Assembly: GCA_035084275.1 (NCBI GenBank)
Contig: CM068752.1
Location: 7,688,001 to 7,752,000, forward strand
Direction of reading: 5' to 3'
Origin: Hydrolagus colliei
Lineage: Eukaryota
Length of the DNA stretch: 64,000 nt
The notes beneath the pieces were generated by a model that worked only from the letters and a program-made list of their open reading frames with translations, ran no database searches and had not been told where the DNA came from. Positions 313 to 60,169 of this stretch are shown here, in pieces. A program made the translations under genes and the position numbers. The stretch's first letter is position 1; each line of letters opens with the position of its first letter.

Positions 313-529
313 CTGCAACACAAAGACATCAATCACCATCTTGTTTCTTGTCATTCTTTCCACTACAAGACTTGCTATCATATCTGAGGAGCACAGAGTC
401 TGTCAGAATCATGTCTTAGTGTTTCATCTAAAGCTATTTACAGATGTGAACATTCTGGCAACCAACAGAAATAATACACATACTTACAGATCTTGAAGGA
501 TTTCTCCAAGATGAACTTTAGATAGACTT

Positions 530-810
530 AAAACTACTCATCATAAAATCTTACAGCTCAGTTTCCACCACCCTTTCAGGCCATGCATTATAGACCGTAA
601 CCGCTTTCTGGGTAAAAAAAAAGTCTCCTCATCTCCCCTCTGGTTCTTTTACTAATTATCTTAAATCAGTCTTACCGTTTCCTCTGGTTACCAACCCACA
701 CACTCGCCAGAGGAAACAGTTACTCAATATCTACTCGATCAAATACCCTCATAATTTTTAACATCTCAATGAAATCCCCCTTCAACCTTCTCTGCCCCAA
801 GGAGAACATA
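530..810 (-). mobile_element. CR1 LINE ORF2 3' fragment
   Basis: Degraded translation FSLGQRRLKGDFIEMLKIMR...FFTQKAVTVYNAWPERVVE, typical of the CR1 RT C-terminus. Confidence 0.8.
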
Positions 811-3800
811 AATTAATTTGGTTCAGAACTGTTTTAAGTGTTTCCCAGGCACTACCCTGCGTGATGGGCATTAGATAAATGCAAGTTGTTGTTTCCATCC
901 TTCCTCGCTAAGGAGATAATTCTAATCCCTTGTTGGTAGTGCAGTTACTCAAACTCTGGGATTTTTATTTTTAACATAAATTGGGATGGGACAGTTTGTA
1001 GATAACTGCACCTTCACTAATGGCCACCAGGGAAGTCTTGATACAGGGAGGAAGAGCACACGTGAAACCATGGGATTGACAAGGACATTAACAGTGCTCA
1101 CTTTAGCCATGTCCAATCACCTCTTCACACACAAATGTATTACACAAATAACCTTTAGCTTTCTAAGCAGAGAGCTGTTCCACCCAATCTCTTTCACACT
1201 TATCTAGCCACTCAAAGCCTCTTCAGACCCAACTTTTCTGATAGAATATTTATTGTGCTGACTGAAGGAGGCTCACCCATGTGACTAGTGGGTGATAGGA
1301 AGCCTTGCTGAGAGCTGTGTACTGTAACACACAATGGGTTAGACAATGTGAAGTGTGTAAACCATGTGTGCCCAGACACAGTAATTAACAACCAAAGAAA
1401 GGTATTGGCTGTTAATAATCTAATGAACAACATCTATTATTCCCAATACATAAATGAATCATTGGGTAATTTCTTCCACCCAGTGATTTACAATAAAGCA
1501 TTGGAAGAAAGGTATCTGTACTCACTGGACAGGGTTCAGATCCCTAAACCTGTAAGAAGGCAACACAGTTAATGGCTTCACGGAGTAATTAAAATCTAAA
1601 TTTGATTGACCCTGAAAGATGGTCAATATTTTTGTGGACATTAAATTGAATCTATATGCTGCAGCTTCACCAGCAAACTGGGGAACTTGCTTGGTGGTCG
1701 ATTGGCATTATCCCTAAAAAAAACAAATTGATCACTCGATCCACGACTGTTTGTGGGACACTGCTGTGCAAAATTGGCTGCACAAGTTTCGCCAACAAAG
1801 TATAGTCAATTCACTTTACAATATATATTCTTAGAAGCTCTTTGAGACATCTCAATGACATGATATGGTGCTATATCAAAAGCAAGGATTATTATTAATA
1901 TTAGATATTATTATAAAACTATCCTGCCATTGCCAGTTGATCTTACAAAAGTAAAGTGGGCCACCTTAAATGTATGTATCCATATCCCTTGCCTTACATC
2001 CCACGGCTATAACTTAGTTGAGCCGGATTGAAAAGTTTGCGGTGCAGCAGGTGATTTGCTTTCTGCAGAAAAAACCTATCCTCAGGCACCAAATGTATAA
2101 ATTCAATCTCCTTGAGCAAGGATGAGAAACTGACTCCACTGTTTTGTAAATTGATTTCTTTAAGCAGCCCTGCTTTGATTCGCTGGACTTATTTCAATCT
2201 ACCCAAAACACTGATTCCCACTGTGTCTTTGACTTGAAGTACATTTGGAATAAGGAAGGGCTTTGGAAGCAAATAGTGTGAATGGGTCAGGAAACAGCCA
2301 GTTGTTTCCTACAGAGAAGGAACGGTAAAGGGAAACAGGAGACAAAGAGAATGACTGTGGTCACAAGGAAAGGAGTACAGATTGGGATTATCAAATGGGC
2401 CTAAAGGTTTCACGCATTACTGGGTGAGTGCCCAAATGTCAAAAGTAATATTTGTTGGGCAAGACTTCAAACCATGATATCAGCTGTTTTTCAATTGGAT
2501 GCTAAAGATCCTGTAATGCTATTGACAAAGAGAAGGGTCGTGGACAACTATCTGCCTCAGGGCTGTTTGTGGGACCTTGCTGGCATAACCCTTTGTCTCT
2601 TTTACCCACAAAAACAGTTACCTCACTTAACAGGAATTAGCTGTGAAAAACTAATAATAATCCTTGCATTTGATACAGAACCTTGTCACGTCATTGAGAC
2701 ATCTCAAAGCGCATCACTGAATATACTGTAAAGTGGAGTGACTGTGTGTTCTGTGGGCAAAACGTGTTTTGAGATGTGATAAAGCTGTGTAACATGCAAG
2801 TCCTTTCTTTAATGTTCTTAAGTGTAGCGTTTATGTCTCAGCCTCGCACACGTAAAGGCTACCAGCCCAGCAGATAAGCATCAATCCTAAAAGGTTTCGA
2901 ATGTAATGTATGCAGGGTCTGGTGCCTGGCTGCTCATTGGGCGTGCGGTTAGGGCCCACAGTGAGGGGGCGGTTGACAGCTCCCTGCTGTCATAGATGCT
3001 TCTCGCCCACGGCCCTCTGCAACAAGCCTGACTGACAAGGTGGGAGAAGCTGCACAATTTCCAATACCTTAAACACAATTATTAAAGCACAGAGCACACA
3101 AGTGTTACCATTCTACAGTTTCCTCTGCAACATCGGGGAGGGGAACTCCTCACTGAAATCTCCATCGTGAAGGGAATGAATATTTATTCCTATTGATTTC
3201 ATAAAAACTCAGTAACAAAACACTTTGTGCACGAAACACAGTGGGCAATTGCGCACAGCAGTAAGGGCAATTGCGCACTGTCGTGATTTTTGTTCGAGGG
3301 ATTATTACCTCTCGCAATGCAATCCACCAATTGACTAAGAAGCTGCTACTGCTGGATAAAGAGAGCCGAATAGAGTAAGGAAAGTTGCCTAGGATTTTGC
3401 CCTAACCTGCCTGGGAATCTAACTTGGATCCTCTTGCTTGCAATGCGCTGAGATTCCCAGCCAAAATCTCATATCGACAGATGCTGTCTTTCCTTCAGTC
3501 AAATTTGATGTTGGAGGACTCAGTGTACTGCCTCCATTTGATGAACAAGTAATGTTTGGTGACAGATTATTTCATGTGGAATAATCAGCCGCCCACGCTT
3601 CTGGGAATAGGAATCCTCGGAGGCGACAGCACGTGATCTGGCAAGAAGTCTAATCCAGGCAGACAGCAAATGGCTTTCTGTTACTGTGAGGATTGGGATC
3701 CAACATTCAAACATGTCTAGGGATAGGATCAGAAGCTTCTCTAAATGGCTGAACAGGTTTATCCTGAGCCAGAATTCCAGAACCCCAACATACAATAACA

Positions 3801-4854
3801 AACAACAAAATGACATTTAGAGAGAGCCTTTCATGTCGGGAGGACATCCCAAGGTGTCGGGAGGATGTCCCAAGGCCCTAACAACAACCAATTCTCTCCA
3901 GCTCTTCCTGATGTACAGAATATTCTGGAATACAAAGATCGGCACTGATTCGTGGCCATGAATGGTCCGTTTCTGTGCTGTACAGTCTATGTGAATATAA
4001 CTACCTGTACCTCTCCTCCGAATTTATCAAATAACATTGACTGTTCTCTCCTCCTAATGCTGAGTGTGAGATCCTTGTCACACAAACGTTTTGAGACACC
4101 TCGAAGACGTAACAAGGCACTATTATTAATCAAGGGACTACTATGCCTATTATTATTAGCTGCCTCATTTGCCTACATAACTATAGTGGTTGTCATTTAA
4201 AGTAACATTGGGAGACAGGAGCCAGTGTTAACTGTCTGATGGCAGAATTAGGCCAGTCAGAGTGTGTGTCACTGACCACTTGACCAGCGAGACCCTGGCT
4301 CCACAAGGAGAGTGTTTCCGAGAGTCCCTGGCAGAGTCACTGTGACCCAGAGCTGGTGATTGTTGCAGTTTTGTACCAATATCCTAAATGTCATTTATCT
4401 GGGTCTCACTGCATTCAATTCCAAAGTGAATCTACACTGTCCTCTTCAACGCGGTCACTTGCAGACTAATTCTCACTGGTGGAGAGAGATCGCACTAACA
4501 AAGCATCAGCTTCTAATTACAGTGTTAGGTCAGGGAGACATGAACTTGCCAATGGCTGCCATGAGCGGCAGAACACTGCGTTACTGCTTTAATTAAACAT
4601 TATCTTGGGCAAAGGTCATATCTCCATGAAGGATAGTATTAACTGGAGCCCAGCATGCTGGGTGAGATGGCTAATGACCAAGCTGGGCATTTGTCTCATA
4701 ATTGTGGAGCCCACATTGCCAAGGCTCACAGCACAGGCTAACCCAAGATGAGACAGAGTAGAGATGAAATAGGGGATAAACAAAGAAAGAATGGTTAGGC
4801 CATGTAGAGCTTGCGGTTTATCAGGCTGTACTGTATAGTGTGGGAGGAAGGGAA

Positions 4855-5205
4855 GACTTAGAGACTTCCATGGTTACAGCATAGAACAAGTCCATTCAGC
4901 CCATTGTTTCTCTGCCTGTTTCCAGTCCCGCTCCCCTGCTCTTTTACTCCAACTAGCCCCTCTGCTCTTACCCCAACTAGCCCCCACTCACTCCCACCGC
5001 TCATACCCCAACTAGTCCCATTCACTTCCACCTCTCTTACCCCCATGGCCCTGCACATTTTTCCTTTTCAAATCACTACCCAATTCACTTTTGAAAACTT
5101 CTGTCAAATCTGCGCCCACCGTTCTTTCAGGCAGTACATTCCAGACTGTAACAACTCTCTGGGTACAAACATTTTTCCACATCTCCCTCTGGTTCTTGGG
5201 AAAGA
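4855..5205 (-). mobile_element. CR1 LINE 3' end
   Basis: NQREMWKNVCTQRVVTVWNVLPERTV (CR1 FTQRVV..WN.LP motif) followed by the CR1 3'UTR gggctgaatggac..ttctatg. Confidence 0.8.
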
Positions 5206-5867
5206 ATGAGTTAGCAGAGGACACTTGATCTCAACATAGTAACTCTACAGAGAAGAATTGGAATTGGAATCTCTCATCTCTCGTGCCTCCCTACCTCCAT
5301 TTCCCGATGGGGAGATGGAGGTTGGGAGGCACGAGAGACGAGAGATTCATCAGAGAGATAAGCAGAATCATGAAGGTAAAACAGAAGGAGATGGGAAATG
5401 TTGGGGAAGAGGATAATAATAATAATCCTTGCATTTGATAAAGCGCTTTTCAGGTCTTCAAGACGTCTCAAAGCACTTCACAGAATATACTGTAAAGTGA
5501 ATTTTCACTGTTTACTTGTGGGAGAAGTAATGGCTGGAGTGAAAAGACAGTGTCCTCTCATTTACCCTACATTCACTTGATTCGCTAATTTCTTTGAATT
5601 CACCTACAATCTTATGAACTAAATGCTCCCTTTGCCCCAGTTACAGTGGCCACAAACAGTAGAGCAGCTTACCCAAATATATTAGCTCTTCATCATATAA
5701 TTAATGTTTAATGTGCAGCAGAAACACAACACATTGTGAAGACGATGGAGAGCCATTGAAATTTCACTGATGGTGCTGCCTGTAATCTGTTCATGATTTC
5801 ATTACTATCAGGTCAGCTCAGCACAGCCCAGTCTATCCAATCATTTTGGGCCTCAAAGGAGTTGTAT

Positions 5868-5990
5868 GAACATAGGAACAGGAGTAGGCCATTCAGCCCT
5901 TAAGCCTATTCCACCATTCTATTGGATCACGGCTGATCTGTACCTCAACTTCAATTACCCGCCTTTACCCCATATCCCTTAATATATGTG
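5868..5990 (-). mobile_element. Shark-type CR1 3' UTR fragment; similar pieces at about 18085-18180, 20290-20350, 31320-31385, 32535-32720, 48885-48990, 62565-62660 and 63195-63255
   Basis: cataggaacaggagtaggccattcagccc is the reverse complement of the CR1 terminal motif. Confidence 0.7.
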
Positions 5991-6278
5991 CTGACCTGAG
6001 AAACATCTACCCACCACAGTCCTGAGAATACAAATAGCCTGTGAGTGATTGACATTGTGTGTGTGTGTGAACACTAACAGTGAATATGTGAACATCTCAA
6101 CTCGCTCAGAAAATAGTGATATTATCATAGTCAATGTTCTTGATCAGTTAAAAACACTTTCCTTTCTTTCTCTGAGAAGGCAGTTAAATATCAGTAACTG
6201 AATGTAAAATTCTTCAGAAAAAGCAAGTTGGGCATAAAACGGACACGGTTCAGTTCATTGATATAACAGCTCATTCTA

Positions 6279-6442
6279 CAGTAAACTCCTGATAACTCGT
6301 CATACCAATGGGAAAGGGCTTGATGATGAGTTATCAGGAGTGGTGAGTTAGGCGTATGCTTAAAAGTGTAAATAAACTTAGCCAGGATGACTGATGTGTT
6401 AGTGATGAGCTAAGCCAAAGTTAAGTTATTAGGAATTTACTG
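6279..6442. mobile_element. Tc1/mariner (Tigger/pogo-like) MITE, 164 bp
   Basis: TIRs CAGTAAACTCCTGATAACTC vs reverse complement CAGTAAATTCCTAATAACTT (17/20), flanked by TA on both sides. Confidence 0.7.
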
Positions 6443-8970
6443 TATTGTTTTCAGGTCGTATCAGGTGAACCTTGTTTGAGTTACTTTATATAACGTAGCT
6501 GAGGCTACAGCTACAATCTACAGCTTTAGCGGATTTTACCCTTTCCTCATAAAATAATAAAACTCAGCTTTTGAATTCTCTAAGTAAGTGAGTCAAGGAA
6601 ATGTTCAGTCAAAGGCAAATTATGACAGCGTGAAAATTACGGTACTAAAAAAAATTAGGGGCACACAGTGCATCTCATGCTATCTGGTTGCTAGGTAACG
6701 TCCTGCCTCGATTAATCTGTGCGGAAAAATGTTGAGAATAATAAGGAGTGTGGGGGTAGGTGGCTCACTGGGAGGTAAGCGCGATCAACTCAGAGCTGAA
6801 CTGACTCCAAGGTGACATATCTGGCAATGGAATGTCGGGATGGAGCCAGCCCCTCTCTGTGGGGCACTCGGAGGTACTGGTGAACAGTAACAAAAACAAC
6901 AAAAGACCTTTACACAGCGTCTTTCACGTCGGGATGACATCCCAAGCCATCGGACGGTCAGGGATTCGAAACGTATTTGTTCTGCATTAGTCGTATAATA
7001 TCCGACTTGTACAGAGCCTTACACAAATGACACGACTTATTCAAGATTGGCATAACGCATACTTTGACCAAGTCATATTATATGTCACTGATACCATTCA
7101 TGTGAGGTTTGAAAAGAGAGGCTATTGAAAAGCGACGGGAGTTTGCGCTGGTGACTTGACCAACAATCCTATGGATTAATCATCGTTCATTCTCTCATTC
7201 ACTCACTGCTCTGAGCAATCGGGTTGGCAGAACCTACAAAAACAGTGACTATGCTGTGATGGCGAAGCAATTTGAGGAGCAGCAAGGTTTTCTAAGTGCT
7301 TTATTTTTATGTAATGTTCTCCTCCATCTATTATTGCTATTGTTTTCATTGTTTATTAAGATGGAACAAGTAAGGTCGATGATGTTGTTGTGAAGGAGCT
7401 GAAAGGCAGAGATAGACTGGTGATTATTGGCAGAGACAATGTCTTCCTGTGCTGTGATCTCTGCCTCTCCCCTCCTCCCCCAGTTACTCCTGTTTACTCC
7501 CACTCCTCAGTTCCCCACTGTGTTTCGTGTCAACCACAGATGAGCTGATATTTCCAGGATAGGGCCATGCGTGTGTGTGTGAGTGTGTGAATGCGCATGT
7601 GTGCATATGTGAGTATGCATGGGTGTGTGTGTGTGTGTGTATTTTATTGGTGAAATACAGCAGCCAATTGCACACAGCAGTGTCCCACAAGCAGTCGTGG
7701 ATTGAGTGATCAAAATTATTAATAGATGTATTAGATATATATATATAAATGACATTTACACAGCTGGACGTCCCAACAAAGATGTGGGACATTCAAAGAT
7801 TTGGACCTGAGCTGGTGGTTGGGATCAGGAATAGATGGAGGGCAAGGAGGGATGAGGGTAGGTGGGTGAGTGAAGTATTTTGTGGTAAATTGAACACATT
7901 AAAAGTGCCACCATGGAGCTTTCTTGTGATCATGTGGACCAAGGGATTGGGAGCAATAATTACTGTCAATGTCATGTTGACAAAATACCAGAATGAGTGC
8001 GACAGAATGAGAGAAGGGAGAGAGGGACAGAGGGAGGCAGAGAGGGGGAGAGTGAGGGAGGAGGAGGAGGGAGAAGGAGAACGCAAAATCAAGGTAAAGC
8101 TGGAAGCAAGAAAAAAAACTGTCGAACTTCTTAATTGCAAGCTTTTGAACGTTCTCTTTGTTCCCCTGATCCATTGCTGATTATTTTTAGCTTTCAGGAG
8201 TTTGAGCTGCCATGTTAACAGAAAGTAAAATGCCTGTTAACATTGGGCTGGTAAATTATTCCAAACACAAGCTCTCTCCGCCCACCATGGCTATTACAGC
8301 GGAGTTTCAGTCAGTGCTAATGGAGCAATTGTACCAAGCTGAAGCCTGCGACGCTACACCAATCAGAGGAAGGCAATGACAGAAAGAGTCTCAATTTCCA
8401 GCACTGTTTCAACCCTTTAGCTTCACCAATGTATCACTTACGGCCAGTCTCCATTTCAATGGCTGCAGCACATTACTATACTGAAGAGTACTTCAGCACA
8501 GGGGAATTATCAAGAGAGCAACTTTAGCAGATGCCTTTGCCATTCCCAATGCCAATACCCAGCTATTATCTTCCTTTCATTGTTAACTCAAAGCTGATTC
8601 TTTCCCAGTGCAAAGAGATCAACTCAACACACCAACTTATATCTCTCTCTCGCCCCCACTCCCTTTGCCTTGAATCCCTGAGTTAAAGGCAACACTTCTA
8701 GTTCATCAACCTTTGATGTATCAAATCCCATACAAAATATGCAAGGAGATCGGTCACTGGAGCCAGACAGCCCCCTCCTCAGAAAAGGGGAAGTGTAATC
8801 TGCTCTGTAATGGATTCCAGGGAAAATATTCCATGATTTCTGGAGGTCTAGAAATCCTCTGTCTCTGATGGATTTTCTAGTTTCTCTGTTGGTTGAGGTT
8901 TAACTCAACTGAATATCTTTTGTTTGTGTTTCAGTATGTCCTCTCGGCCTGGCACCTTGATAAATGAAAT

Positions 8971-9240
8971 TTTGTTTTGGGGAGTCAACTGGGTCTGCGT
9001 GTCTGACACATGTGGAAACCTATCCCTGTTGCTTAACCCAGCTGAAAATTCCATGCCTCCCACCTACACATGGGCATTCCCGAGAGAAATTGTTGGAACT
9101 AAATGCTCTCTCTCTCTCCCTGGAGGGACACGTCCCGCTGACCTCATTCAGGAGAGTATTAGGTGCAGGTTGGCAAGAGCCAAGGCTTGGGGGGGGCCCA
9201 GAGTGTGCGTTGGGGTATCTCCTGAAGTCTAACCAGCTAA
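8971..9240 (+). repeat. Unclassified dispersed repeat, family A (other copies at 20731-20988 and 31781-32062, both minus strand)
   Basis: Collinear shared blocks: gtctgacaca, ccacctacacatgg, gagagattgttggaa, ccaaggcttgggg, gtctaaccagct. Confidence 0.75.
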
Positions 9241-10109
9241 AACTTCATAGTTTGCCATTGATATTACTATACAGAAACCTATGCCTCAAGTGACACCTGT
9301 ACCTTGTCATCCCTTGGGCTCTCAATGTCAAGGGCCTGTCCTTAGAGCAGCCAAGAAAGAGCACACACAGGGACAAGAAGGGTGCTGTGGCTGCGGGCAC
9401 CACAGTTCATATCCCCAACCATAGTACACCACACACACACAGTACTGCAAACAGAAGGAGAATAGCCAGCTGTACTCGCTAACTGCAATCTGTCTCAGCC
9501 TCAGCGATATTGCTGCATCCTTACTGCACGACATGCGTGTGACAGCAATGGAACACAATTGCTCCCGGGCTGTCAGTTCAGCTTGTTCTTTCATCATTCA
9601 TTTCTGATTTGATAAATACAAGAGCGAAGGCTTACAATATGGTGGCCTTGAGTAAAAAGGGTAAAAAGATTTTAGGTTGCAAGTCTCTCTGCTTGTCTCC
9701 GTCACTGGGTGACAGTTATACTGGTACAGTTTGACACCACATTGCTGGCGACGGGTGAGATTCCTTATTTATTAAATCTGCCCAGGCTCCCATCAGCCAT
9801 GTCCAAAGCTTTTCCCATCAAGTCAGTAAATCCAGGAGCTGATAAGCACAATTGATGGTGTTTTGATTTGCTTCACAATCCTTGTGCTGACAACAACAAA
9901 ACAACAACAAAACAACAACAAAACTACATTTATAGAGCAGGAGGACGTCCCAAGGCGCTTACATCACATGCACACACACAAACACATACACACACACACA
10001 TACCTTCATCACCCTAATCCCATACCTGTCTGGATTTCTGAACTCCACATTAAAAATATTGCACGCTTCATGTTTTGAAAACTAGACTAGATGAGAAGTT
10101 CAGCTCTTA

Positions 10110-10470
10110 ATAATAATCATCCTTGCATCTGCTACAGAGCCTTAACATGTTTTTGAGACATCTCAAAGCACTTCACAGAATGTATTATAAAGTGGAGTGA
10201 CTGCATTTTGTGGGTGAAACACGGCAGCCAATAGCACACAACAGTGTACTACAATCAGTCATGGATTGAGTGACTAAATTGTTATGACATTTTCAAGGAT
10301 TATAATCCCTAGAAAGCGATACGCCAATTAAACAACAACCGGGTCCCTACTTACTGCTAGGTAAACAGAGACATGTGTGTGTGGAGTAACCTGCCTAATG
10401 TTTGCCTCGCCCCCGGGAATTGAACCCAGCTTGTGAGGTGAGTGCTCTAACCACAATACCGCAGGACTCC
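10110..10470 (-). mobile_element. Near full-length DeuSINE-like SINE
   Basis: Same head, core and tail architecture. Confidence 0.8.
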
Positions 10471-13400
10471 CAACTTCTTTCCACATCAGGGTTTTTACAA
10501 GCCAGTGCTGCCCGACCAGAGAAATCTCTTTACATAATTACGCTGTGATCGGAAGGTGGTTGGATATGATGAGCCGGAGCTTGGAGATGGTGTGTGGGTG
10601 GCACTCAACTGCGGAGTCCAGATAAACAAATCCTTAATAGCATGAAATCCCCGTCTTGGTCCTGAGGAGACTGTGTAACCACATGGGTTCAGGAGTCACG
10701 GCTGCAGCTGCTGTCTAACAGGATGATTACGTGGTGTTGAATGTAATTTGAACCAAGAACATTTTTATTGAGATCAATGGTGCTGAGAGAGATGCTGGTG
10801 AATGGGATTAGCTGAGTAATAAGACCACGGCTGCTATTATACTGTGTGTGTGTGTGTGACATACATTGTGGTAATGGGCTCAGACCTGCTAACATACACA
10901 CACGCGCACACTCTCACTCAATATCATGTCAGTCATTCCGGCCTTGCACCATTCTTAGAAAGAGAAAACCCAATAGAAAACTTCCTGGAATTGTTCAATA
11001 CGACAGTTTCTCTCATAAAATACACCGTCCATTCGCTTTACGATATATTGAAAGGCTTTGAGACATGTCATTGACGTGATAAGGTGCAGTATCAAATGCA
11101 AGGATAATTATTATTATTATGCTAATTATAACGTGTTGATTTTACTGACTGGTAGCAATTCTTGTTTCGTGCACATTGTAAATAATGCAACCAAGGTTTT
11201 TTCCTGACTCTATCATCATGACCAGGTAGGGGTTTAATGTTTGATAATGAAGGATGACACTGCCAGCGTTTTAGTGCTCCCCCTGCAATATGCTGGAGTT
11301 AGTAACACACAGTTCTATCAGCAAAACTGATTTGTGGAAGGGGTGATATGTCTTTGCGAGCAGCTTTTGCATTGATTGTTAGTCATTTCCTACAATATTT
11401 ATTAGATCCATTTAGTCAACTGATAAATACAGGGACATTCTTATGTCACCATGGCAACACAAGCAGCCTTAAACAGACAGGGCAGTGAAGCAAAAATGGG
11501 AAAGGAGACAATACTCTACAACACAATAGCATTTACATTTATATAGCGCCTTCAGTGGGAGGGCGAGTGGGGGGTAAATCTCACAGTGTTGAACACTGCT
11601 GGCTGCGTAAGGAACATTGGATCTGAACTGAGGACATTTTCTTAATGTAGATAGTTTTGATTGAAATTGATAAGACGAGGATACAAAGCATAGGAGGAAA
11701 GGAGAGAACATTTCAGAGGAGTAGTCAGCATTATAATATTGGTACCATAGAGAGAGAAGAGGTTGCAATGGAAAGACAGAGAGAGAGTGAGGGTGTGAGG
11801 GGGGGGGGGGGGGGGGGTGGGTGGAGGGGAGCAGACGGGGGGGGGGTGGAGGGTGGGTGAGAGAGAAGGATAACCTATTAGACCTTTTTTTGTCAATAAC
11901 ATTGTCCCACATGATAAGATCATGTAGTGGTGAGCGCCGTGGGACTGAGCAGAAAGCCTCTGAGGACCATTCTGTCAGTGATGTTTAGTGAGAGGCTAAC
12001 ATCGGGTCACATTGCTCTGTTATTTATCTACATGCAAATGATTCTCTCCAAGATGAGGTTGATTAGCGTAATTTGTTAACCTAATTATTTGCATTTGTGG
12101 CCTCGAGACACTGAACCCACCAACACCAATTAGATACTGGTTCTCTCTTGTCAAACCAACAATCCACCTACAAAATACAGTCACTTCAGTTAACAGTATA
12201 TTCTATGAAGTGGCTTGAGACTCAACTTTGTGCCTTATACCAACTGCAAGGATTTTGATTATTCTAATAACCACCTGACAAAAATAGCTAAGAAGTGTAT
12301 TTCTTTTATTTGTGAAAATTTCTTCACATAAAACAAACCCCATTTTGTTCATGAGTAAGAGGCCCTGGATGGATCAAGCCTTTAAAAAGTGCTGCCATTT
12401 CCCTGCATTTGATATAGCACCTTGTCACGTCTTCAAGATGTCACAAAGCGCTTCACAGAACACACTCGTGACTGTATGTTGTGGGAAAAACACGACCACC
12501 AATTGCGCACAGCAGTGTCCCACAAACAGTCGTAGATTGAGTGACCAATTTCTTTTAAAAAAGTGATTATTGCCCCCAGGAAAAGCGATCCAGTAATTAA
12601 CTCGTTCGGTCCAGAGGGAACTGCTCTCTGCTCTGCTCCTCCTCTGAGAGCCAAGAGCTTTTCAATATTCACAGTTCCCATCAGGCATCTTAATTTGAAC
12701 TAATGCAGTTAAAAGCTTTCCTCCCCCAATTCTGTCCACAAAATACAGTCAATTCACAGTCTGTGCTTTTAATTCCTGGGCAGGTGGTGGGGTGTGGGGA
12801 ATACTGAGAGTCAGTTACAGTCAGAGAGTGAAGTGCTTTGAGACGTCTCAATGACCTGAGAGTTTGCTATATCAAATATAGGCATTATTATATATTATGC
12901 ACCATAATAATTTGGTCATTTCAATTCATGACTGTTTGTGGGATGCTGCTGTGTAATTGTTGCCGTGTTTTGCTCACAAATACACAGTCAATTCACTTTA
13001 CAGTACATTCTGTGAAGCGCTTTGAGACGTCGATAAGCGCTATATAAAATGCAAGTATTATTATTATTATTATTGCTACTGGGCGTGAGGAGTAAGAAAA
13101 CTTGCCCAACATTTTTCCTGCCTGGGAATTGAATCCAGATTGTCTCGCTTGCGAGGAGAGTGTTCAGCAGAAAGTCTGACACGGTTCTGAACAGAAATGT
13201 CTCCCATTAATAACACCACTGTCCTCATGTCAGCAGTGAATTGGATTGGCAGCGCTGACTTCCCTTCAAATTAAATTTGTGTTGTGTTCTTTACAGAGGA
13301 AACCGCTGTCTGTCATGAGATCTACAGAGAATAACAACAAGCCCACCCTCCCAGTGTGGCAGTGGGCATATAGCAGCCCCCACACCACCACCACACATAG

Positions 13401-13499
13401 TTAGTTATGTCCTGCCATGTGCCAATCACTGTTGTGTATATCCTACAGAAAACAGGGACACTGAGGAGCTCTTACCGTCGATTAAATGCTACACTTGGA

Positions 13500-13845
13500 T
13501 AATAATAATCCTTGCTTTTGATATAGCACTTTTCACGTCTTCTAGACGTCTCAAAGCACTTCACAGAATATACTGTAAAGCAAATTGACTGTATATTTGT
13601 GAGCGAAATGCGGCAGCCAATTGCGCACAGCAGCGTCCCCACAAACAGTCATGGGTTGAAATTATCAATTTTATTATTGTGGTTTTTTTTTTTGAGGGAT
13701 TATTATTTGGCCCCCGAGTAGGAAACTTGCCCCAAGCTTTCACCCGGACCTGCCAGGATTCGAACACAGGTCTCACGTAAGGCTCTCTTGTATAGCACTC
13801 TTCAATCAGGCTATAGTGTCTCTAACCACTGAGCTACAGGACTCT
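13500..13845 (-). mobile_element. Near full-length DeuSINE-like SINE
   Basis: Head gagtcctgtagctcagtggttagagacac..., B box gttcgaatcc, central core and (ATT)n tail. Confidence 0.85.
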
Positions 13846-16800
13846 GGATGGAATCTTCTCCTGTGCGGAGTGTCTGTCTGTCCAGGACACTGGGCTCAGG
13901 ATTACACATTGGGGATGTGGAGATGGATGGATGGATGAATACTGTGGTGTTTTGCTTGACTGACGTTGGGGCCGAGGGTGTGTGGACTGAACCTATCTCA
14001 GGAGGTAGAGTGTGAGGATGCTTTTGAATCTATGATGAAGACAATTGTGCCTATCCAGGCCATCCTGCCTGTGCCAGTGCTTTCAAAGATCTACTCAATT
14101 AGGACCACTGACCCACTCTTATCCCAAGAAACAAATATATCCTATTCATCTGGGAAGCATTGTTCTGAGTTGACTTTCTCCCTTGGAAGCTAACAATATC
14201 AGCTCACACTGGTTTCCGGTTCCTCACACCTGATTTCATTCTGCTTCTCTTGTAGCTTCTGTCTGTGTGTGGGTGCGTGCGTGCGTGTGTGTGTTTTTGT
14301 AACAATCCAAATCAAAAGAAAGTTTGACTGACCTGGGGTTCAGAGGCTCTCTGGAGAGAAGATGCATAATTTGTGTGAAATGAGCACAGCAGAGCCGTGT
14401 GTCGGAGCCAATAAAGCTCAAATGTCACAGCAAAAAGCCCACACATTGTGCAGCCTGCTCGCTGGATCCCTCCCACGTCTAATGCTCTCTGATATGTGCA
14501 ATGCCTTCTGTGGCTTGCCCAGAGAAAAAACACTTTAAACCCAGTTTTAACTGTCCATCAGTCAGTCATTCAGTCAGTCGTCTACTGATTTTTTTAAATC
14601 TTGACAAGACGCATGTGGCTTCATAATTTGGTCCTGTTTGCTGCATTTTTACCCACAGAACACAGTCACTTTACAGTATATTCTGTGAATAGCTCTATCA
14701 AATGTAAGGATTATTATTATTATTATTATGCTCTACGGAATGCACTGACTTGAGGTGTGTTTTGAATGTGTACATTCTGTGTCTCGGCACTTTTGGTTTG
14801 TTATATTTGAATAAATCTTATTACAACAATGGAACCTTCAAATTAACCTCAGAAAAGATTTATTATTCCAGTTTCCTTTCCCCAGATCCCAATCTGTGCT
14901 ACTCTGCTCTCTGGGGGAGAGTCTTAACAAGATTACTAGCAGGATTGGCAGTGATGAGATACGGATCTCAATCCACTGCGTGAATATAGAGGCGGCGTGG
15001 CGATAACAAGCAGAAAGACAGCCTTTCCCTCTCTCTCTGGAGGCCTGGTGCCTCAGGGGCTAAGCTGGGATGAGATGCTGGGTAAACTTGCCTATATTCC
15101 CCATAGCTGAGTGCGTTAAGGGGTGATCTTTAAAATAATGAAGTAATTGGCAGCATAGCAAATCCTCTCTTTCCCTCCAGTCGAGGCAGCTACAACAGTT
15201 CATACTATCATCTGCAAATTAGAACCGAGACGGCCAGACATGAGATCACACACCACCTTCACACAGAGGATTGTGAGAAGCTGGAATCCTCTGCCTCTGG
15301 AAGGCCATTAAACCCAAAGCAAAAGGGAGGTGAGATGAGATACTTAGGAAACTACAGCATTCAGGCTGACAGAGAGAAGAGAAATAGGATTTAAAAATAT
15401 TTCATAGATATTCCTTAATTTGCACATGATGCACTCATATCGTTTTAATTTCTACTAATTTGCCCAGTTCCTATTGAAAACGTTCCTGGCTCTGTCACAG
15501 GTTTCTCCAGCATTTCCTATTCACTGAAAAAAAACTACTGTACATTCATCCTCATTTTCTAAACCCTTCTTCATTTTTACCACATCATCAACAACGACGA
15601 TGACAACAACTTGCAGTTATATAGCGCCCTTCACACGGGAGAGCGTCTCAGAGCATTTTTGGGAGCCATTTGTGAAAAAGAATTCAGCCTCACAAGGTTC
15701 TCTGCAAAAGCCTTTCTGCTGACCTCCCCCGTTCTCCTGATAAATCCCAGTGGATGGTTTCCTGTTACGTGGTGTAACAACAAGCACATGGTTTCCTCTG
15801 AATATCCAGCCCCAGAAGAGGATTCCACACACACACACATATATATATACATACACTACAGGTCCCAGCTAAAGACCTTTCTCTTTGACCGCACCTTTGA
15901 TCACCTTTCTATCCCTGCCCCTAGCTCGGTCCCGGGATCCATTGTTGTGAAGCGCTCTGAGACCCTGTCCGGCATGGAGGGCGCGATATAAATCAAAGTT
16001 GTTGTTGTTGTTTACACACACACACATATATACAGACACACACATATAGATACTCACGTAATCATGTACACACATATTCCCACATACATACAGCCTCAAT
16101 GTCTCAGTCAGCCTGGGGTTAGGGAGGAGGTGGACACGGTGGGTGGAATGTTGTTGTGTTGTAATTGAGACTTAAGTGCTCACACTGAGAGACCAGGGAA
16201 GTCGCTGTTAGAGGAGTAGATGTGCCTACATCTACTGGTGTCTTAGCCAGACACCCACCCACAGCAATGCAACTGCATTTCCCACCATTTGACAGGACTC
16301 CCTTTCAAAGAGATTTCATGCCTCTCTGCTTCTCTCAATGCACCCTTCAGTCTCCTGTCACACAACGCCCAGCTCTTCTGAGCTGTTGTAAGGCTCAAGA
16401 TGGGCATCTCTGAAGTACACCCAGCGCTGCCTCAAAGCAGCGCTTTGAGTGCGTGTTTTTTTTTACCACTTGATGTTGGCTCCAGTTTCAGACTCGGTGG
16501 ATCTAAAGCGAGATATTAAGAAGCGGTAATTGTCCTACAGCGCCTCTGCCTGCGAACCTGGAATAGGCAACCAGGATCCGTGGGAGTTTAGCTCTGGAAG
16601 TTACAGCAAAAAAACTAGATAACCTGCAGGGATCTGTTCACTGTCAAGGGACATTCTCATTATCACGCTATAATTGTTTGATTCAGGTTCACCTCTCTGT
16701 CTCTTCTCCTCTCCTCAAACCATCAACCGGTACCCAGTCTCTGTAACTTCTCTCAAGAGGCCGCCCTTCATGTTGCTAACCTGACTGAATGGGTGTCTTC

Positions 16801-18234
16801 ACTGAGCCAGTCCCTGCCAGTCACCGCACACAGCAAATGTGCCAGATTTCCAGCATGGCCTAGCCATTGCACGACATGTAGCAACTCCTACATTCTCTCC
16901 TCCCTAGACCCAGGCTGCTGAGATCAACTAGATCTAAGGCTGAACTGGCCGCAAGGTGACATATTTGGCCATGAAATGTCAGAGTCGAGCCAGCCCTCCC
17001 TCTGTGACGGTCTATAGTCTGGTTCCTGAGACTGGCTGACGTCTGCGGTATATTCAGGGCTCTCTCTCTCTCTCACTGCTGATGATAGCACAGCCCAGCC
17101 TCGCTCAACAGCAGGACCTGGAAGGGCCAACCAGTCACTGGGAGCAGAGAATCCTCCCACTACAACTCCTGGTAACCCTGCAGCTAAAGCCCTAACTAAC
17201 GGGTAGAGCTGTTCTCGATGGACAAGCAGCAATGAAGCTAGCAGACAGATAAGCCCCTCTTTTCTCTATTTTCCTTTATCCTCTCTCTCTCTCTCACTTT
17301 GCTCTAATATTGTTTATTTAAACATAAATGCTGCTTCCTTTCTGACCAATATTTATTCTCTTCGTTTCACATTTAAAAATGTCTCTTTAAATTCCTCTGG
17401 CGTTTGCTGCGAGCTCGGCGTGCCTGTACACTACAGTCTGACTCTTTTCATTACTTTATTATTGAGTGCTGCTGTCCTCCCCCTCAGGCACTCACCCACG
17501 TACATTATTCTCCACCGTGTGGGTGGACAGCCTCCTCTCTCTCTCTCTGCCTCTTCGCTTTGTTACCAGTTCCATTGGTTGATGGGTTACAGACAGCAGC
17601 ACACAGTAGCTAGCTGGCTTACTGAGGCTTTGCCTTGCTCAGTGAGAAAGCTGCCTGGCCGCATCCCTTCCACCATGGCACGGGCTCTCACTGAGTGTGT
17701 GTGAAAGAGAGCGTGTGCAAATGCCAGCTCTCATGCGGCACATTGTGGCTTCTAGAACAAACAATGATAGCTCCACAGTTTGCCATTACGAGGCTCTGAT
17801 TCATTCACAGTCCTTAGATTTTTTATAATAATCATTGTAGATTGTTGAGGCGTCGATAGAGGGGATCAACTGTATATTTTTGAGGGCAAAACGCGGCAGC
17901 CAATTAAACAAAGCAGTGTCCCACAAATAGTTGTGGATTGAGTGACCACATTTGTTTAAAGTGATTAGTACTTCCTGAAAAGTCAATAGGCTAACAACTG
18001 GGTTCCTCCTGACCACTAAGTAAACTGAGGTATGTGGAGTACGGAAACTTCCCTAAGGTTTCCCCCTGCCTGGGAATCCATCAGATACCATATATAGTTT
18101 GGGACACAAATGACGTCCAGGATAGTGGAAGACAAACTGGATGGACCTTGGTCTTTTTTCAACTAGAAATTCTTTATGTTCCGATGAGAGACAGCACTGA
18201 GCAGGAGCACCATTCCCAGCCCAGCAGCATTGAA

Positions 18235-18530
18235 TATTAATCCTTATATTTGATATAGCACTTTTTACGTCTTCTAGACATCTGAAAGCGCTTCGCAGAA
18301 TATACTGTAAAGTAAATTGACTGGATATTTGTGGGAAAAACGCGGCAGCCAATTGCACACATCAGCATCCCACAAACAATTGTGGATTGATGTGATCAAT
18401 TTTTTTTTTTTTTTTTAATTGGATTTTTGTCAGGAGTGTAGAGTGAGGAAACTTGCCCAAGGTTTTAGCCTGCTGGGAATCAAACCCAAGTCTCTCGCTT
18501 GAAGGGCATGTGCTCTGAGCTACAGGACTC
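18235..18530 (-). mobile_element. DeuSINE-like SINE on the left flank of the US22 fragment
   Basis: Tail, core and head present; head ends at about 18530. Confidence 0.8.
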
Positions 18531-18622
18531 CCCCGAAGTAGGCAAAAAAGTTCACCATCTCATTGAACTTTACCATAGAGTAGAAATAATGAACGAGAAG
18601 CAATAATTTTCTGCAGCTCTGC

Positions 18623-19056
18623 TCAATCCAGAAGATCAAGCAATTTCGTAAATGTATTCGCTTCGCTGTCTGTGTAACTCGGTGACTTTAAGCTACTCCT
18701 ATCCAAGTGGCAATCTTTCACTGTGTGTAGGTACCCTTCAGTAGTCTTTGACATGTATCCTTTGCGTCGACTTCCTTTCAACTAGGGATCAGTTGGAAGC
18801 ACACCTTTCCCTTCAACTAGCTGAGTTGTATTTTTAGCAATTTTGTGCGGTGCTCGATTTTCATAAGCAATACACAGTACCATCTTCTGCAACGAGGATA
18901 ACAAACTGGAGGCAAGGTGCGAGGCAAGGCAATCCATCTAGACACCCAACACCTCCAGATTTGTGAATTTGACTAGGTACAGACTTTTCCACGAGTCAAG
19001 CATATACTCTCTCCCCACATAAACAGGATCTTCCCGGTTTGTTAATACAAAGAGTA
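18623..19056 (-). pseudogene. Degraded US22-like (SUKH superfamily) gene fragment inside CAMK2A intron 2
   Basis: With one -1 and one +1 frameshift the minus strand reads ILFVLTNREDPVYVGREYMLDSWKSLYLVKFTNLEVLG/CLDGLPCLAPCLQFVILVAEDGTVY/AYENRAPHKIAKNTTQLVEGKGVLPTDP*LKGSRRKGYM...FTKLLDLLD*. The W..(L/F)YL....(L/M)EVLG and hydrophobic-EDG.VYAYE...H..A motifs are recalled from fish and viral US22 proteins. Confidence 0.72.
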
Positions 19057-19280
19057 TATTTGTGGGCAAAATGCGGCAGCCAGTTGTGCACAGCAGGCAT
19101 CCCCACAAACAGTCGTGGATTGTAAATGATCAATTTATTATTGTTGTTGTTTGTTCCGAGGGATTATTATCAGGCGTGTGGAGTAAGGAAAGTTGCCCAA
19201 GGTTTTACCTCGACTGCTGAGAATCAAACCCAGGTCTCTCGCTTGCAAGGAAAGTGCTCTAACCACTGAGCTGCAGGACG
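19055..19280 (-). mobile_element. 3'-truncated DeuSINE-like SINE fused directly to the US22 fragment
   Basis: Head and core present; stops at cccacaaatata, with no tail. Confidence 0.8.
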
Positions 19281-22200
19281 AATTGTCGAAGCCAATTGCC
19301 AACCCAGTTGGTCAAACCCCAAATCTCAAGACCATCTTGATCTGTCAGGACGGGCTTAACAATGGACTTGGTCCACTAGAGGGAGCCCTTTGAGTAACAG
19401 ATACAGACCAACATTATGCTGGTTTGAACTGGAGAGGTGACAGACGTAGTGAAAGGAAGGCTAATTCTAAAGCAATTACGCACTTTAATTGAAGTATCAG
19501 CCTGAAATCAGCATTATGGACATAACAATCTTTCTGCTTCATCAAGAGGACAGATTTTAAAGCCTCAATTAACAGCAGTTTCGGTTTATACAGATAGAGC
19601 ATCTCAAAGAGAGAGAGAGAGCATGCTCTATAATGAACAAGAGCACAGGGATTGGTGACAACAAGCGAGAGAGGTTTTTTTGTTGTTGGCTTTGGAAGTA
19701 AGGTGGTGGTGGCGAGATGGGGAGTAGGTGGGTGAGGGACAGTAAAACTCCCCAATCCAGTGTTAAAAATAAGAATTTGTTCACTCAATCCATGACTGTT
19801 TGTGCGACACTGGTGACAATTGGCTGCCCTGTTTCACCCACAAAATTTACATTCAATTCACACTTATAGTATATTCTGTGAAGCGGTTTGAGACGTGGTG
19901 AGGCGCTATATCAAATGCAAGGATTATTATAAGTAGTATTATTGGGCAAGTTTCTCTGCACAGTGATATTGATTCTCAACACTTGCCGGTGGCTGGTGTT
20001 TGAGTAAACTGGTGACATTTACTAGCCTTGAAATAGAATGAAATTACCCTTTCACTGGTAATGCAAACTACACCGAAATGTGGCAAATTATGTTAAAGGA
20101 GACAGTTTTATCCTGATGAACAATCTGCTCAATCATGGCGTATCCCTTTTAAGAGAAAGCTGTTTGACTTGGATGGCATTTCTACTCTTATTCCCAAAAT
20201 GTTGATCAGATTTTCTGTTACCATAAGAAAGCCTGTCAGTGAGATAAATAATGAGAGGAAGATTGTTGCTATTATCTAGTGAAGAGCAAGAAATGGGGTT
20301 AAGGTGGAGAGCTCCCGTGGGGGAGGGAGCACTAGCACAGACACGATGGGGAGAGCGAGAGAGAGCAGGGAATAATGCCAGTTGCATTGGCACCAAACAG
20401 CGCGGACCATTAAACACAGATTTATTAACATTTCACCAAATGATTAATGGTTAATGTGCAGCCGAAACAACATATTGTGAAACCGATGGAGCCCCATTTA
20501 TATTCCACTCATGGTGCCGCCTATAATCTGTTTATGGTTTCATTACTGCCAGGTCACCAGGGTCTGCTCAGTTTATCCCAGTCCCTTGGGTCAGTTTAAT
20601 GTCTCTCCTACTGATTGCCCCAGAGAGAGTGGTGCAGAATACAGATAATATGAGAAAGATTTACTGGTGACACCGGCTTTGCTCCCTAGCACTTGTTTCT
20701 ATGATAATAATCCTTACATTTGATGTTGTCTTTAGCTGGTTAGACTTCAGCAGTTACGCCAACGGACACTCTGAGCTCCGCCCCCAAACCTTGGCTCTGG
20801 CCAAACCTGCACCCAATACTCTCCGGAATTAGGTAAGCAGGATAAGTCCCTCCAGAGTGCATTCCATTCCAACAGTCTTTCTCTGGGATTTCCATGCGTA
20901 GTTAGGATCTCAAGTTTGGTTCGGATAGTCTCAAGCATGGTAATGGGTTTCCACGTGTATTACACATCTGGGTGCCCAACAAAAACATATCGTGCCTACG
21001 GCGTCAAAACATCCCATCATTGAATGAGGTGATTGCCTGCCCTTACACACTGTGTGCTTGAGGCACTGGAAGACTGTGGTACCACACTTTTTTTATGAAC
21101 CACTGCTTTTGAGAAAGGAGCGGGGAGAAACTTAAGAGAAAATAAAACAATCTCGAGGGTTTAGTCGTTTGACTGACTCATGGAGTGGATGACCAAGGAG
21201 TTGGAGCTAAAGCCGCAGATCAGACATTACAGGTTCCCTTATCAGTAATTCTTTGACAATCTCTCCTCCATTTAGGTTTGGGGTGATAATTCAGCCTGGC
21301 AATCTTTCAACCAAGCACGCTCCCAGCTTTTCACAAATTACATTATCCCCAGTGGTATGTCTTTCATAAACTCATTAAACACATCAACACAGACTGAAAA
21401 CACATTTAACTCAACACCGCATAGATAATGCCTATTGCCCGATTGACTCAATGTGAAATTATTCAAATATACAAATCCACCAGGTCCTCTTTTATAAACA
21501 ACAAAAAAAATTCAATTTATAGAGCTCCTTTCACATCAGAAGGACGTCCTTACAATGTGGACCCTTATATAAGAGGCTGATTGTTTTATTGTTGACCCCC
21601 CAACTCTAACCACCCACCCCATCACCACATTATAACAGGATGGTCTTGACCAGCAAACCAATCAAATGAACTCCATATAATTGGGGTGCAAGCACAGTGT
21701 GTGACATGACAATAATCTGACCAGCGAGAGCTGCTAGATCTGCAAATCCAACCTCCTACCCCTCCACCCTCCCTGCCCTCCATCCCTCCTGATCCCAACC
21801 CCCACGCTCAGGTCCAAATCCCTTACTATCCAGCGCCTTGGGGATATCCTCCGGACGTGAAAGTCACTGTGTACATGTCAATTGTTGCGTGTTGTTGTTG
21901 CTGTATAGAGGGGGCTCTGTCTGCTCTGTGTGTAAATAGAACTGACACTGGATTCCACTCCTGTGCCAGTGCTGGGTGTGTTCTGGCCAATGCCATGACC
22001 TGGTGAGACCTGTTCCTACTTCTGTCCTGCCCCTGGGGCCTCAATGTCAAAATTTACTCACCTTCTCACTGTGTCCCTCAAGGGCCCTTTACTCTAGATC
22101 TCACCACGTGGCCTTCCTCATCCAGTCACACGTTGTTTCTGACTCACTGCCCTTCCGTGCAACTTACCTATTGAGGAACTCAGTTCTGTCTGACACCCTC

Positions 22201-23334
22201 CTTCGCCCTCAACCCTGCAACTAAAATTCATCAGTGATTTTTAGTGCTACAATGCCTCAAGCGCAGTCTGAGACATAGTCTGACGTGAAGGGCGCTATAT
22301 AAATGCAGGTTTTGTTTGCTGTTGTTGTTGTTATGATTGCTTTAACTATCACAATGTCTCTCAGATCACCTCAAACAAACCTCAGCTCCTGAGCGAACAC
22401 AGAACCAGCCTTTTTCCAGAACCTTCAATTCTTAAATTCAGGTTCAGAATAAACAGGATCAGCTGGAATTAAAACCAGCTTCAAGGAACAGAACAACATG
22501 GACAGTGAAATAGAGGCGCTGAATGTTTGATCTTTAGCAGACGAGAGCGTGTGTGCCAAAACTCCCACTCTGCGTGGGCGGTGTATTGTGTGCCCATATA
22601 CACACCCTCCCCTCCTGTCCCGACACACACACTCACTCACATACATACACACACAACAGACATAATGCCTCATCCACCTGCACCCACATTGAGTACAATT
22701 TCCATGGACACCACAATGATCTGACTCACTGTACCTGAATCTCTTTGTTGCTGTAGTTAATAGCATTCAATTCAGCTCCAGCCCACAGTGTTTTTATAGG
22801 AGGCCGTCTCCAGACCATTGCAATGCCATTTGTTCTTTTACTATTAGTGATTAATATTATTCACCCCCGACACACAGGACCTCGCGCACACACACACACA
22901 CACACACACACAGGCGCGCGGACTGGCTGGGAACACTCACTCATTCACATGGTCAAAATGCAAGTTTCTCACAAAGAATCATTTGGGGCGATGATTGACA
23001 CAGAGGGAGCTGGTGAGATTGATAATCCCCCAAGTGGGGGCTGTGGATTATACTCTGTGTTTGCAGCTCTCAACCCAGACCAGTGGCAATGGGATGCCTC
23101 CTGTGAATGTCTCCGTGTGAGATAAGTGAGTTTGGGGCCAGGATCAGCCCTACTCCCGGCGGGGATTGATTCACCACAAACTGTGCCATCAATGATTAAT
23201 CCTGGGAGAATCTCAGTGAGAGATACTTGGGATATCAGCAGTAGGCAGTGGGAAGGGTTCCACTCTCAGATAGGGAATAAGAGAGCAAGCTTCAAATTGG
23301 GGCAATTTATAAATTCCTGACAACTGTCTAGTGG

Positions 23335-23690
23335 AATCCTGTAGCTCAGTGATTAGAGCATTCACCTCGCAAGCAAGCAGAGCCGAGTTCGATTCCTGGG
23401 CGGGGCAAAACCTTAGGCAAGTTCCCTTACTCCACACAGCTCTGTTTCCCGAGCAGAAAGTAGGAACTCAGTTGTTTAGTCCATTGTTGGATCGCTTTCT
23501 GAGGTTAACAATTCCTTCAGAAAAAATATATCGGTCTCACTCAATCCACGATTGTTTGTGGGTCACAGTTGTGAACAATTGGCTGCCGCGTTTCCCACAA
23601 CATACACAGTCACTCTACTTTACAGCATAACCCTTTGAGATGTCTAGAAAACATGAAAAGCGCTATATCGAATATAAGTTTTCTTAATAT
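23335..23690 (+). mobile_element. Near full-length tRNA-derived SINE (DeuSINE-like); representative of the dominant family, with dozens of mostly truncated copies in both orientations across the window
   Basis: Pol III A box TAGCTCAGTG and B box GAGTTCGATTCC, central GCACAATTGGCTGCCGCGTTTC Deu-like core, and an L2-like tail GCGCTATATCAAATGCAAGG(ATT)n in most copies. Confidence 0.88.
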
Positions 23691-24429
23691 CCTGTGAAGC
23701 GCTTTGAGACATCTCGAAGACGCGTTAAGGCGCTGTATCAAATGCCCAGGGTTATTATACCTAGGATTGGACAAGGATAACAACTGCATGTGGGAAGAGA
23801 GATCAGGGGGTGGCTGGGGTCTGTGTATTTGTACTACAGCCAGCAGCAACCTTTAGGTGAGGAGAGAAAAGGGAGAGGGATAGAAAAGCATCTCTCACAG
23901 GTACCTGCACACATCTGCTCTCTGTTTACCTCCAGAGGTGTGGTGTACAACACAAGACCTAATTGGGAGGGACTGTGCCGTGCCTGTTACAGTATCACAC
24001 AAACACTCTCTCAACCTGCGCTAACAAATAACCCGATCCATCGCCACAACTGCAGAGGAACGTAATGACGTTTTGCCCACAAAATAATACAGTGACTACA
24101 CTTTACAGTGTATCCTGTGAAGCTCTTTGAGACACCTCGATGACAGAATAAGGCGCTGTATCAAATACAATGATTATCATTACCAAACAAGAGTGTAAAA
24201 GCGCAATCAATAAAATCCGAAATCTGCACCTTTCCATATCTCCTTCAGAATCTGGGTGGATTTATCGGTTTATTAGTTTGTCCCCACGTCAAGCACTGCA
24301 TTGTAAAAGCTGAGAAGCTCTCCCAGTGGGTGAGAAAGCAGCATTCACACTTTCCCTCCTCATTTCATCTTCGGAGATTATCTGTTTGATTATCTGTAAC
24401 GAGATGCATACCACCACTTACTGTCCCTC

Positions 24430-24680
24430 TCTTCCCATCCGTCTCTCCCTCCCTCCCTCCCTCCCTCCCTCCCTCCCTCCCTCCCTCCCTCCCTCGCTCT
24501 CATCTCCCACCTCTCCCCCTTTCTTCCCCCTGTCCTCTCCACACTCCTCCCTCTTTCTCTCTCTCCCCACTACCTGCTTCTCCTCTTCGTCTTTCTCTCC
24601 TTCTCCCCCCTCTCCCCCCTCCTGTCTCTCCCACTCTACCCCTCCTGTCTCCCCTTGTCCCATCCCATCCCTTTCTCTCT
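24430..24680 (+). repeat. (CCCT)n polypyrimidine tract; similar tracts at 28045-28200 and 42385-42435
   Basis: Seen directly. Confidence 0.9.
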
Positions 24681-25034
24681 CCTCACATTTGTATCTATGG
24701 TGGATTTGAGGCTGTGAAGCTGACATAGCCACAGGTGCTTTTACCTGGAGGTTTGCAGTGCGGAGTGAGGTGAGGATGGAGCTCAGTGTATATACAGGCA
24801 ACTCACTTTACAGTACATTCTGTGAAGCGCTTTGAGACACAGTCTTAAAGACGTGAAAAGCGCCATATCAAATGCAAGGATTATTATTACTGTATTATTA
24901 ATGTACAACCTACTGATAGTTCACACACACAGCGAGAAAGAGAGAGAGAGAAAACGAGAGTAAAGTCGGAGCCTGAGATCTCAACAAAACTCAAACCGTT
25001 CCCGATCAAGTGGGGAGTACATCCCCTCACTCAC

Positions 25035-40494: not shown

Positions 40495-40800
40495 AGTCCA
40501 GTAGCTCAGTGCTCGCCTCCCAAGCTAGAGGACCCAGGTCCGAGTCCTGGGCAGGGCGAAACATTGGTCGACTTTCCTTACTCCACATCCCTCTGTTTAC
40601 CCATCAGTAAGTAGGAACCTGGTTCTTCGGCGACTAATGGATCACTTTTCCAGGGATAATAATCTCTTTGCAAACAAAAAAATGTATAATTTGGTCACTC
40701 AATCCACGACTTTTTGTGGGACACGGCTGTGCACGATTGGCTGCCGTGTTTCGCCCACAAAATACAGTCAATTTACTATATTTTCTATGAAGGGCTTTGA
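40495..40800 (+). mobile_element. DeuSINE-like SINE in the ARSI intron
   Basis: Head gagtccagtagctcagtg and core present. Confidence 0.8.
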
Positions 40801-60132: not shown

Positions 60133-60169
60133 CTGTCACAGGGCAACCGTCAGGAGCAGCCAACATCCA

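Follow-up and report, generated by a model that had tools for sequence, protein, structure and literature searches.

A 5′-truncated, non-coding US22-family relic in CAMK2A intron 2 of the chimaera Hydrolagus colliei, possibly a retroposed host gene copy

The window, i.e. the whole 64-kb stretch of Hydrolagus colliei DNA analysed here, carries three CaMKII exons with GT-AG ends, exon 1 at 25305-25244, exon 2 at 25129-25035 and exon 3 at 312-253. Exon 1 fits best on the alpha subunit in the PDB (E 6e-7 vs 5e-5 for delta), and the minus strand also holds an ARSI-like two-exon sulfatase gene (36206-42371) and, with an exon of the thyroglobulin type, a CD74-type gene (59646-62075); ARSI and CD74 are neighbours of CAMK2A. 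These data bear out the placement of the relic described below in CAMK2A intron 2 (313..25034, minus strand), on the strand of its host gene. A run of 677 N lies at ~53.3-54.0 kb, and a single tRNA-headed SINE family makes up ~6.7 kb (10.5%) of the window, in both orientations.

Sequence homologous to US22 proteins occupies 18623-19033 of the minus strand, with a possible extension to 19050-19066. It lies in unique DNA that, by self-BLAST of the window and by the pile-up of the SINE family, spans ~18532-19053 between two SINE copies. The preliminary description had reported a ~430-bp non-repeat island at this site, and the island and its strand are real, but the unique DNA extends over ~520 bp and the US22 part over 18623-19033. 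As was also reported, the relic is absent from the list of open reading frames, which holds frames of at least 90 aa.

Direct comparison with Pfam US22 (PF02393) gave weak matches: the frame with the first and last parts of the relic matched at E=0.0059 (profile positions 29-117 of 124), the middle frame alone matched at E=0.018 (positions 72-93 of 124), and the 17.1 and 15.6 bits scored by the relic's two frames lie below the gathering score of 35. No Pfam US22 match was returned for three of the five relic pieces submitted, and a word-based homologue search with one relic frame gave 0 matches among 27 candidates. With phmmer, one relic frame against 1.84 billion representative proteins retrieved four at E<=0.001, the best being P0001 (6.9e-14); P0001, P0003 and P0004 are US22 proteins, and P0002 is a repetitive protein. 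In the reverse direction, tblastn of P0001 against the window gave E=2e-30, with an alignment ending at 18626, and a family profile built without P0001 still matched the relic (E 6.3e-7), as its sole locus in the 64 kb. These three results uphold the assignment to the US22/SUKH family originally made from the letters alone; no transposon gave a better match, and no transposon family was matched at all. Two candidates were set aside: P0002 (E 5.7e-5 in phmmer), which is repetitive, has no US22 domain and gave no tblastn match to the window, and a Pfam match to CDC24_OB2 (E 0.02-0.08), which overlaps the end of a SINE and was judged to be chance.

P0001 is UniRef V9KZW9, the ‘15.5 kDa protein’ of Callorhinchus milii, an intact single-domain US22 protein of 199 aa that matches Pfam US22 with 77 bits (E 1.7e-21). 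Its UniRef cluster, named for V9KZW9 of this holocephalan, has seven member sequences; the record shows a UniRef source and no contig, so that P0001 is a presumed rather than a demonstrated chromosomal gene. In the Atlas, a query with P0001 returned US22 clusters from Chordata as the three best, with scores of 0.93-0.95.

Aligned to P0001, the relic consists of four pieces, all on the minus strand and in the order of the protein. Piece A (18946..19033) corresponds to P0001 residues 66-95, with 19 of 29 residues identical over 66-94. Piece B (18870..18944), in the second frame between the frameshifts, corresponds to residues 96-120 (20/24 identical over 97-120) and is the piece that alone matches Pfam US22 at E=0.018. 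Piece C1 (18794..18868) covers residues 121-145 (17/25 identical) and is followed by a rearranged stretch (18764..18793) that holds an internal TAG and has 10 codons vs 8 in P0001. Piece C2 (18626..18763) encodes the C-terminal helical tail, residues 154-199 (23/46 identical), and directly after the codon for the last residue of P0001 stands the natural stop, a TGA at 18623..18625. For each of the four pieces, none of 1000 shuffles was as good. Summed over the pieces, 79 of 124 aligned residues (64%) are identical to P0001, in the same order and up to the stop.

The registers against P0001 confirm that there are two compensating 1-nt frameshifts, a loss of one base at ~18944-18946 and a gain of one base at ~18869. 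The internal TAG, likewise noted before, is present at 18784-18782, and it falls inside one of two directly repeated 14-nt segments (18772-18785 and 18807-18820; 93% identical, 35-nt spacing), so that it looks like the product of a local template slip rather than of a point change. The fragment is collinear with P0001 to the natural stop and has no intron, as had been stated; this does not by itself separate a retrocopy from a virus or a DNA copy, and a comparison of teleost isoforms located no introns.

At the 5′ side of the relic the first ~55-65 codons are missing, with a 3′-truncated SINE in their place, and the N-terminal third of P0001 was found neither upstream of that SINE nor anywhere in the 64 kb, where the best local score was 38 and no match lay close to the locus. 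The junction itself (19034..19066, minus strand) is ambiguous, since the end of the SINE here overlaps what may be a weak resemblance to P0001 residues 55-65: of the 11 codons, one is identical and ten in succession differ, nine by one base and one by two bases, giving a summed distance of 11 against a null mean of 17.9 (fraction 0.003), for a boundary that was chosen post hoc. Microhomology is a possible source of this overlap, or else chance. At the 3′ side, the stop is followed by 90 nt of unique DNA (18533..18622, minus strand), a candidate remnant of a 3′ UTR with no second copy in the window; it does not match P0001 (435 of 1000 shuffles were as good), and it contains neither AATAAA nor poly(A).

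The relic is a pseudogene and makes no protein, because it has no start, lacks the first ~55-65 codons and carries two frameshifts and one stop; of a functional gene's complete reading frame with a start and whole domain it has neither. An alignment-based model of P0001 (pLDDT 80.8) shows a SUKH domain and a long C-terminal helix, with the core layout described for SUKH proteins, four helices and six strands arranged as a beta-hairpin plus a four-strand meander (PMC3113570). The part missing from the relic contains the first helix of the core and both strands of the beta-hairpin (44-51 and 54-62), without which the fragment could not fold into the domain. Viral US22 folds were matched by the model, with 63 BFVD entries at E<=0.001, down to 9e-14, and the 50 matches listed are at most 31% identical to P0001. 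Its top PDB match was Smi1/Knr4 (3d5p; Z 5.5, rmsd 4.0 over 92 aligned residues), a middling score, and at the sequence level neither P0001 nor a 107-row profile matched any PDB entry. By analogy with viral US22 proteins, the intact parent would probably be a protein-binding adaptor in virus-host conflict.

To place the relic in the wider family, 238 proteins were collected with a three-sequence profile, and the makeup is known for the 120 listed, i.e. 96 teleost genes, three frog genes, six ranavirus proteins, 14 proteins without an organism and P0001. The 119 other listed members are 26-39% identical to P0001, the six ranavirus proteins being at 32-34%. No shark or ray protein is among the 120 listed of the 238, from a search whose terms favoured teleosts and which was limited to proteins of 73-349 residues. 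Among 121 proteins, all four relic pieces fit best on P0001, whose summed score is 396, against 200 for the runner-up and 194 for the top-scoring viral protein.

A tree of fish host and viral US22 proteins, the comparison suggested at the outset, was calculated from 45 rows, of which one is a masked frame from the window, four are P0003 domains and 40 are further proteins. Near-duplicates (identity >=64%) were excluded, as were P0002 and P0004; the tree is unrooted and ranaviruses are its sole viruses. Within this sample the window and P0001 form one clade (support 100/99) with a stem of 1.46, which is separate both from the teleosts and from a clade of amphibians and ranaviruses. The branching order of the three groups is uncertain, since according to a warning of the tree program long branches converge at the centre.

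C. milii V9KZW9 resembles the relic in its 64% identity over 124 residues, in order, C-terminus and stop position and in its clade, and differs from it in that the relic lacks residues 1 to ~55-65 and carries the two frameshifts, the rearranged stretch and the stop. The chromosomal US22 genes of teleosts and frogs (uncharacterised LOC genes) share PF02393 and a length of ~190-250 aa, are host-encoded and often occur several per species, but they are only 26-39% identical to P0001, belong to separate clades and are annotated as intact. Viral US22 proteins share the fold and Pfam family of P0001, both in the ranavirus group of FV3 5R and ADRV 6R/49L and in fowl adenovirus ORF4, crocodilepox virus and betaherpesvirus UL23/24/26/29/43 (Foldseek E 1e-13 to 1e-4); unlike the relic's relative, they are at most 34% identical to P0001, and the ranavirus proteins group with frog genes and not with the chimaera clade. 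By its nearest relative, the relic's source belongs to the lineage of V9KZW9, either as that gene or as a paralogue or orthologue of it, and a host source is the more likely.

Both ends of the unique island meet SINEs. SINE copy 1 (19054..19280, minus strand) has a tRNA-derived head (Rfam tRNA at 19210-19280, E=2.2e-4), lacks the ~95 nt of its 3′ tail and abuts the US22 fragment; the depth of the family pile-up drops from 17 to 2 at 19056-19053, where this copy ends. SINE copy 2 (18230..18531, minus strand; Rfam tRNA at 18466-18529, E=0.0083) is full length with its 3′ tail, begins 90 nt behind the stop codon and ends with that tail 395 nt after the stop. SINE 1, the US22 fragment and SINE 2 all lie on one strand, although two same-strand SINE neighbours are expected by chance in 1 of 4 cases, which counts against reading them as a sign of retroposition. 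No convincing target-site duplication was found in five pairings, the only matches being between SINE and SINE or 6-8-mers away from the ends. The major SINE of the elephant shark has been described as tRNA-derived, with a 3′ end common to a CR1-like LINE (PMC1845163), and the SINE of the window is likened to it by this description, not by sequence.

The age and parentage of the relic were estimated from its divergence. The SINEs differ from the majority of the other family copies at 20 of 221 columns (9.0%, copy 1) and 30 of 281 columns (10.7%, copy 2), and the neutral decay of the relic is estimated at roughly 8%, with a wide margin, from 4 of 22 highly conserved sites at which the relic differs and P0001 keeps the residue; the decay is therefore of about the same age as the SINEs. 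No stop by point mutation is found in the relic, where 0.8-1.7 would be expected. The unequal end branches of the tree (0.63 for the window, 0.22 for P0001) are what a dead copy should show, yet they disagree with a relative-rate count against outgroups, which gave 5 vs 5 changes; from that count, P0001 may not be the direct parent and may instead be a paralogue or another species' orthologue. The core is better kept than the tail (57/80 vs 23/46 residues identical to P0001, p=0.021), although with independently defined conserved columns the difference is not significant (38/52 vs 19/34, p=0.11). A third split, 41/49 vs 39/77, was set aside since P0001's own residue had defined conservation in it, which makes it biased.

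The preliminary description had left two origins side by side, an endogenous viral fragment or a retrocopy of a host gene. We favour the host, because the nearest relative by far is an intact C. milii protein, no close viral relative was found among the ranavirus and BFVD proteins compared and no other viral gene was found in the flanks; of the routes by which a host copy could have arrived, retroposition is only the most likely. Our best reading is that the relic derives from a host US22 (SUKH-5) gene of the chimaera lineage as a non-coding, 5′-truncated copy, probably retroposed together with SINEs, and we give this reading as a whole a probability of about one half.

Chimeric retrocopies formed by template switching between SINE RNA and mRNA are a known concept, as are 5′-truncated processed pseudogenes. 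The relic is like them in joining a small-RNA head to a 5′-truncated coding fragment, in lying on one strand and in having a retro-element tail at the 3′ end; it is unlike them in having neither poly(A) nor a target-site duplication. On this route, SINE 2 would have been part of the 3′ UTR of a US22 transcript, a short way past the stop codon, a step that we offer as conjecture. A LINE reverse transcriptase would have primed on the LINE-type 3′ tail of SINE 2 and copied back through the 90 nt of UTR and ~135 codons, and would then either have stopped or have switched to a SINE RNA, represented by SINE 1, which retains its head, lacks its tail and adjoins the fragment. One trait of retrocopies is present, namely 5′ truncation combined with an intact 3′ end of the coding region, but poly(A), AATAAA and a convincing target-site duplication are absent, which counts to some degree against retroposition.

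These absences agree with a second origin at the DNA level, in which a duplicated or once-resident host US22 gene lost its 5′ part in a deletion that also took the tail of SINE 1, the SINEs being independent insertions. A tailless SINE could not have inserted by the usual route, so that a later deletion explains the junction as well as a template switch does, and the better conservation of the core than of the tail (p=0.021), together with the 5-vs-5 rate count, suggests that the divergence accumulated partly under selection. With the independent columns, however, the difference in conservation is not significant (p=0.11), no promoter-side or other DNA of a parent locus is recognised, and the unique DNA after the stop amounts to only 90 nt. 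We regard such a remnant as a serious but clearly less probable origin than a retroposed copy.

A viral origin we consider unlikely, somewhat more so than a DNA-level remnant. The relic would then be a DNA or mRNA piece of an undescribed chimaera virus carrying a US22 gene of the C. milii lineage, either captured from the host gene or its donor; as a virus fossil, it would represent a third, holocephalan US22 lineage, of which the expressed C. milii gene would be a domesticated or exchanged member. US22 genes are known from herpes-, adeno-, irido- and poxviruses (PMC3113570) as well as from a coronavirus of the axolotl (PMC11065284), and they move between virus and host, as seen for two Hyperolius genes that nest among ranaviruses (98/96), one of them at 89% identity. 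Moreover, the relic has no intron and may not have been copied directly from P0001. Against this stand the lack of a close viral protein (32-34% identity to P0001 for ranaviruses, at most 31% for the 50 listed BFVD matches), a homologue search with P0001 that found only P0001 itself among 94 candidates, and the position of the relic, whose nearest relative is the C. milii protein and which does not nest in a viral clade of a tree with six ranaviruses. Nor is there a second viral gene nearby: 64 flanking stop-free stretches (at least 50 aa, from 15.5-23 kb; shorter pieces escape this search) gave no Pfam match at E<=0.01, and the GC content of the relic, 43.6%, is unremarkable for the region.

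That the relic serves as an alternative CAMK2A exon or a frameshift-recoded mini-gene is very improbable: it does lie on the host gene's strand and its frameshifts compensate, but the frame common to the outer parts is interrupted by TAG codons at 18940 and 18784, the first helix and the beta-hairpin are missing and conserved sites are altered. Chance similarity or a transposon ORF, to which the sub-threshold Pfam scores and the empty word-based search might have pointed, can practically be dismissed given the match at 6.9e-14 in 1.84 billion proteins, the tblastn value of 2e-30, four ordered pieces, a matching profile without P0001 (6.3e-7) and no transposon family match.

The SUKH-5/US22 group was reported in 2011 from adeno-, irido-, pox- and herpesviruses and from the genomes of lancelet, salmon, frog and platypus, and the chordate members were suggested to stem from integrated herpesviruses (PMC3113570). 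Duplicated US22 genes of ranaviruses are covered in another study (PMC4015033). For cartilaginous fish, no paper on US22 was found in the openly licensed literature. An undescribed US22 reservoir in these fish, as first proposed, does exist to that extent, but it is already on record as a UniRef entry with the Pfam domain. Its novelty is smaller than was first implied, because V9KZW9 with its US22 domain is already in UniRef and chordate US22 was noted in 2011 (PMC3113570).

The relic itself does nothing, and its worth is as a pointer to a deep US22 lineage of the chimaeras' own, in which one gene is intact and one or more copies are dead. The distance of this lineage from teleost and from amphibian/ranavirus US22s equals that between the latter two. 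If jawed vertebrates have had US22 as a host family since early times, the usual view that derives the vertebrate copies from integrated herpesviruses (PMC3113570) would need revisiting, and viruses may have taken US22 from their hosts. The window alone cannot show such a host-first origin, since three groups on an unrooted tree fit both directions. If instead the relic were a virus fossil, it would mirror the traffic between frogs and ranaviruses, and US22 would have been swapped between virus and host in all three jawed-vertebrate groups sampled.

Some further family members deserve mention. P0020 and P0122, the two US22 genes nested in the ranavirus clade, are annotated on a 244-Mb contig of Hyperolius riggenbachi, and P0020 and the common midwife toad virus protein P0037 share 89% identity over 200 residues; these similarities point to a recent frog-ranavirus transfer or to an endogenous ranavirus. 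P0003 (1020 aa) has four US22 domains, all in the amphibian/ranavirus clade. P0108, a protein of 268 aa in the teleost clade, has precomputed PF00619 (CARD) and US22 domains, a pairing that may connect host US22 with innate signalling.
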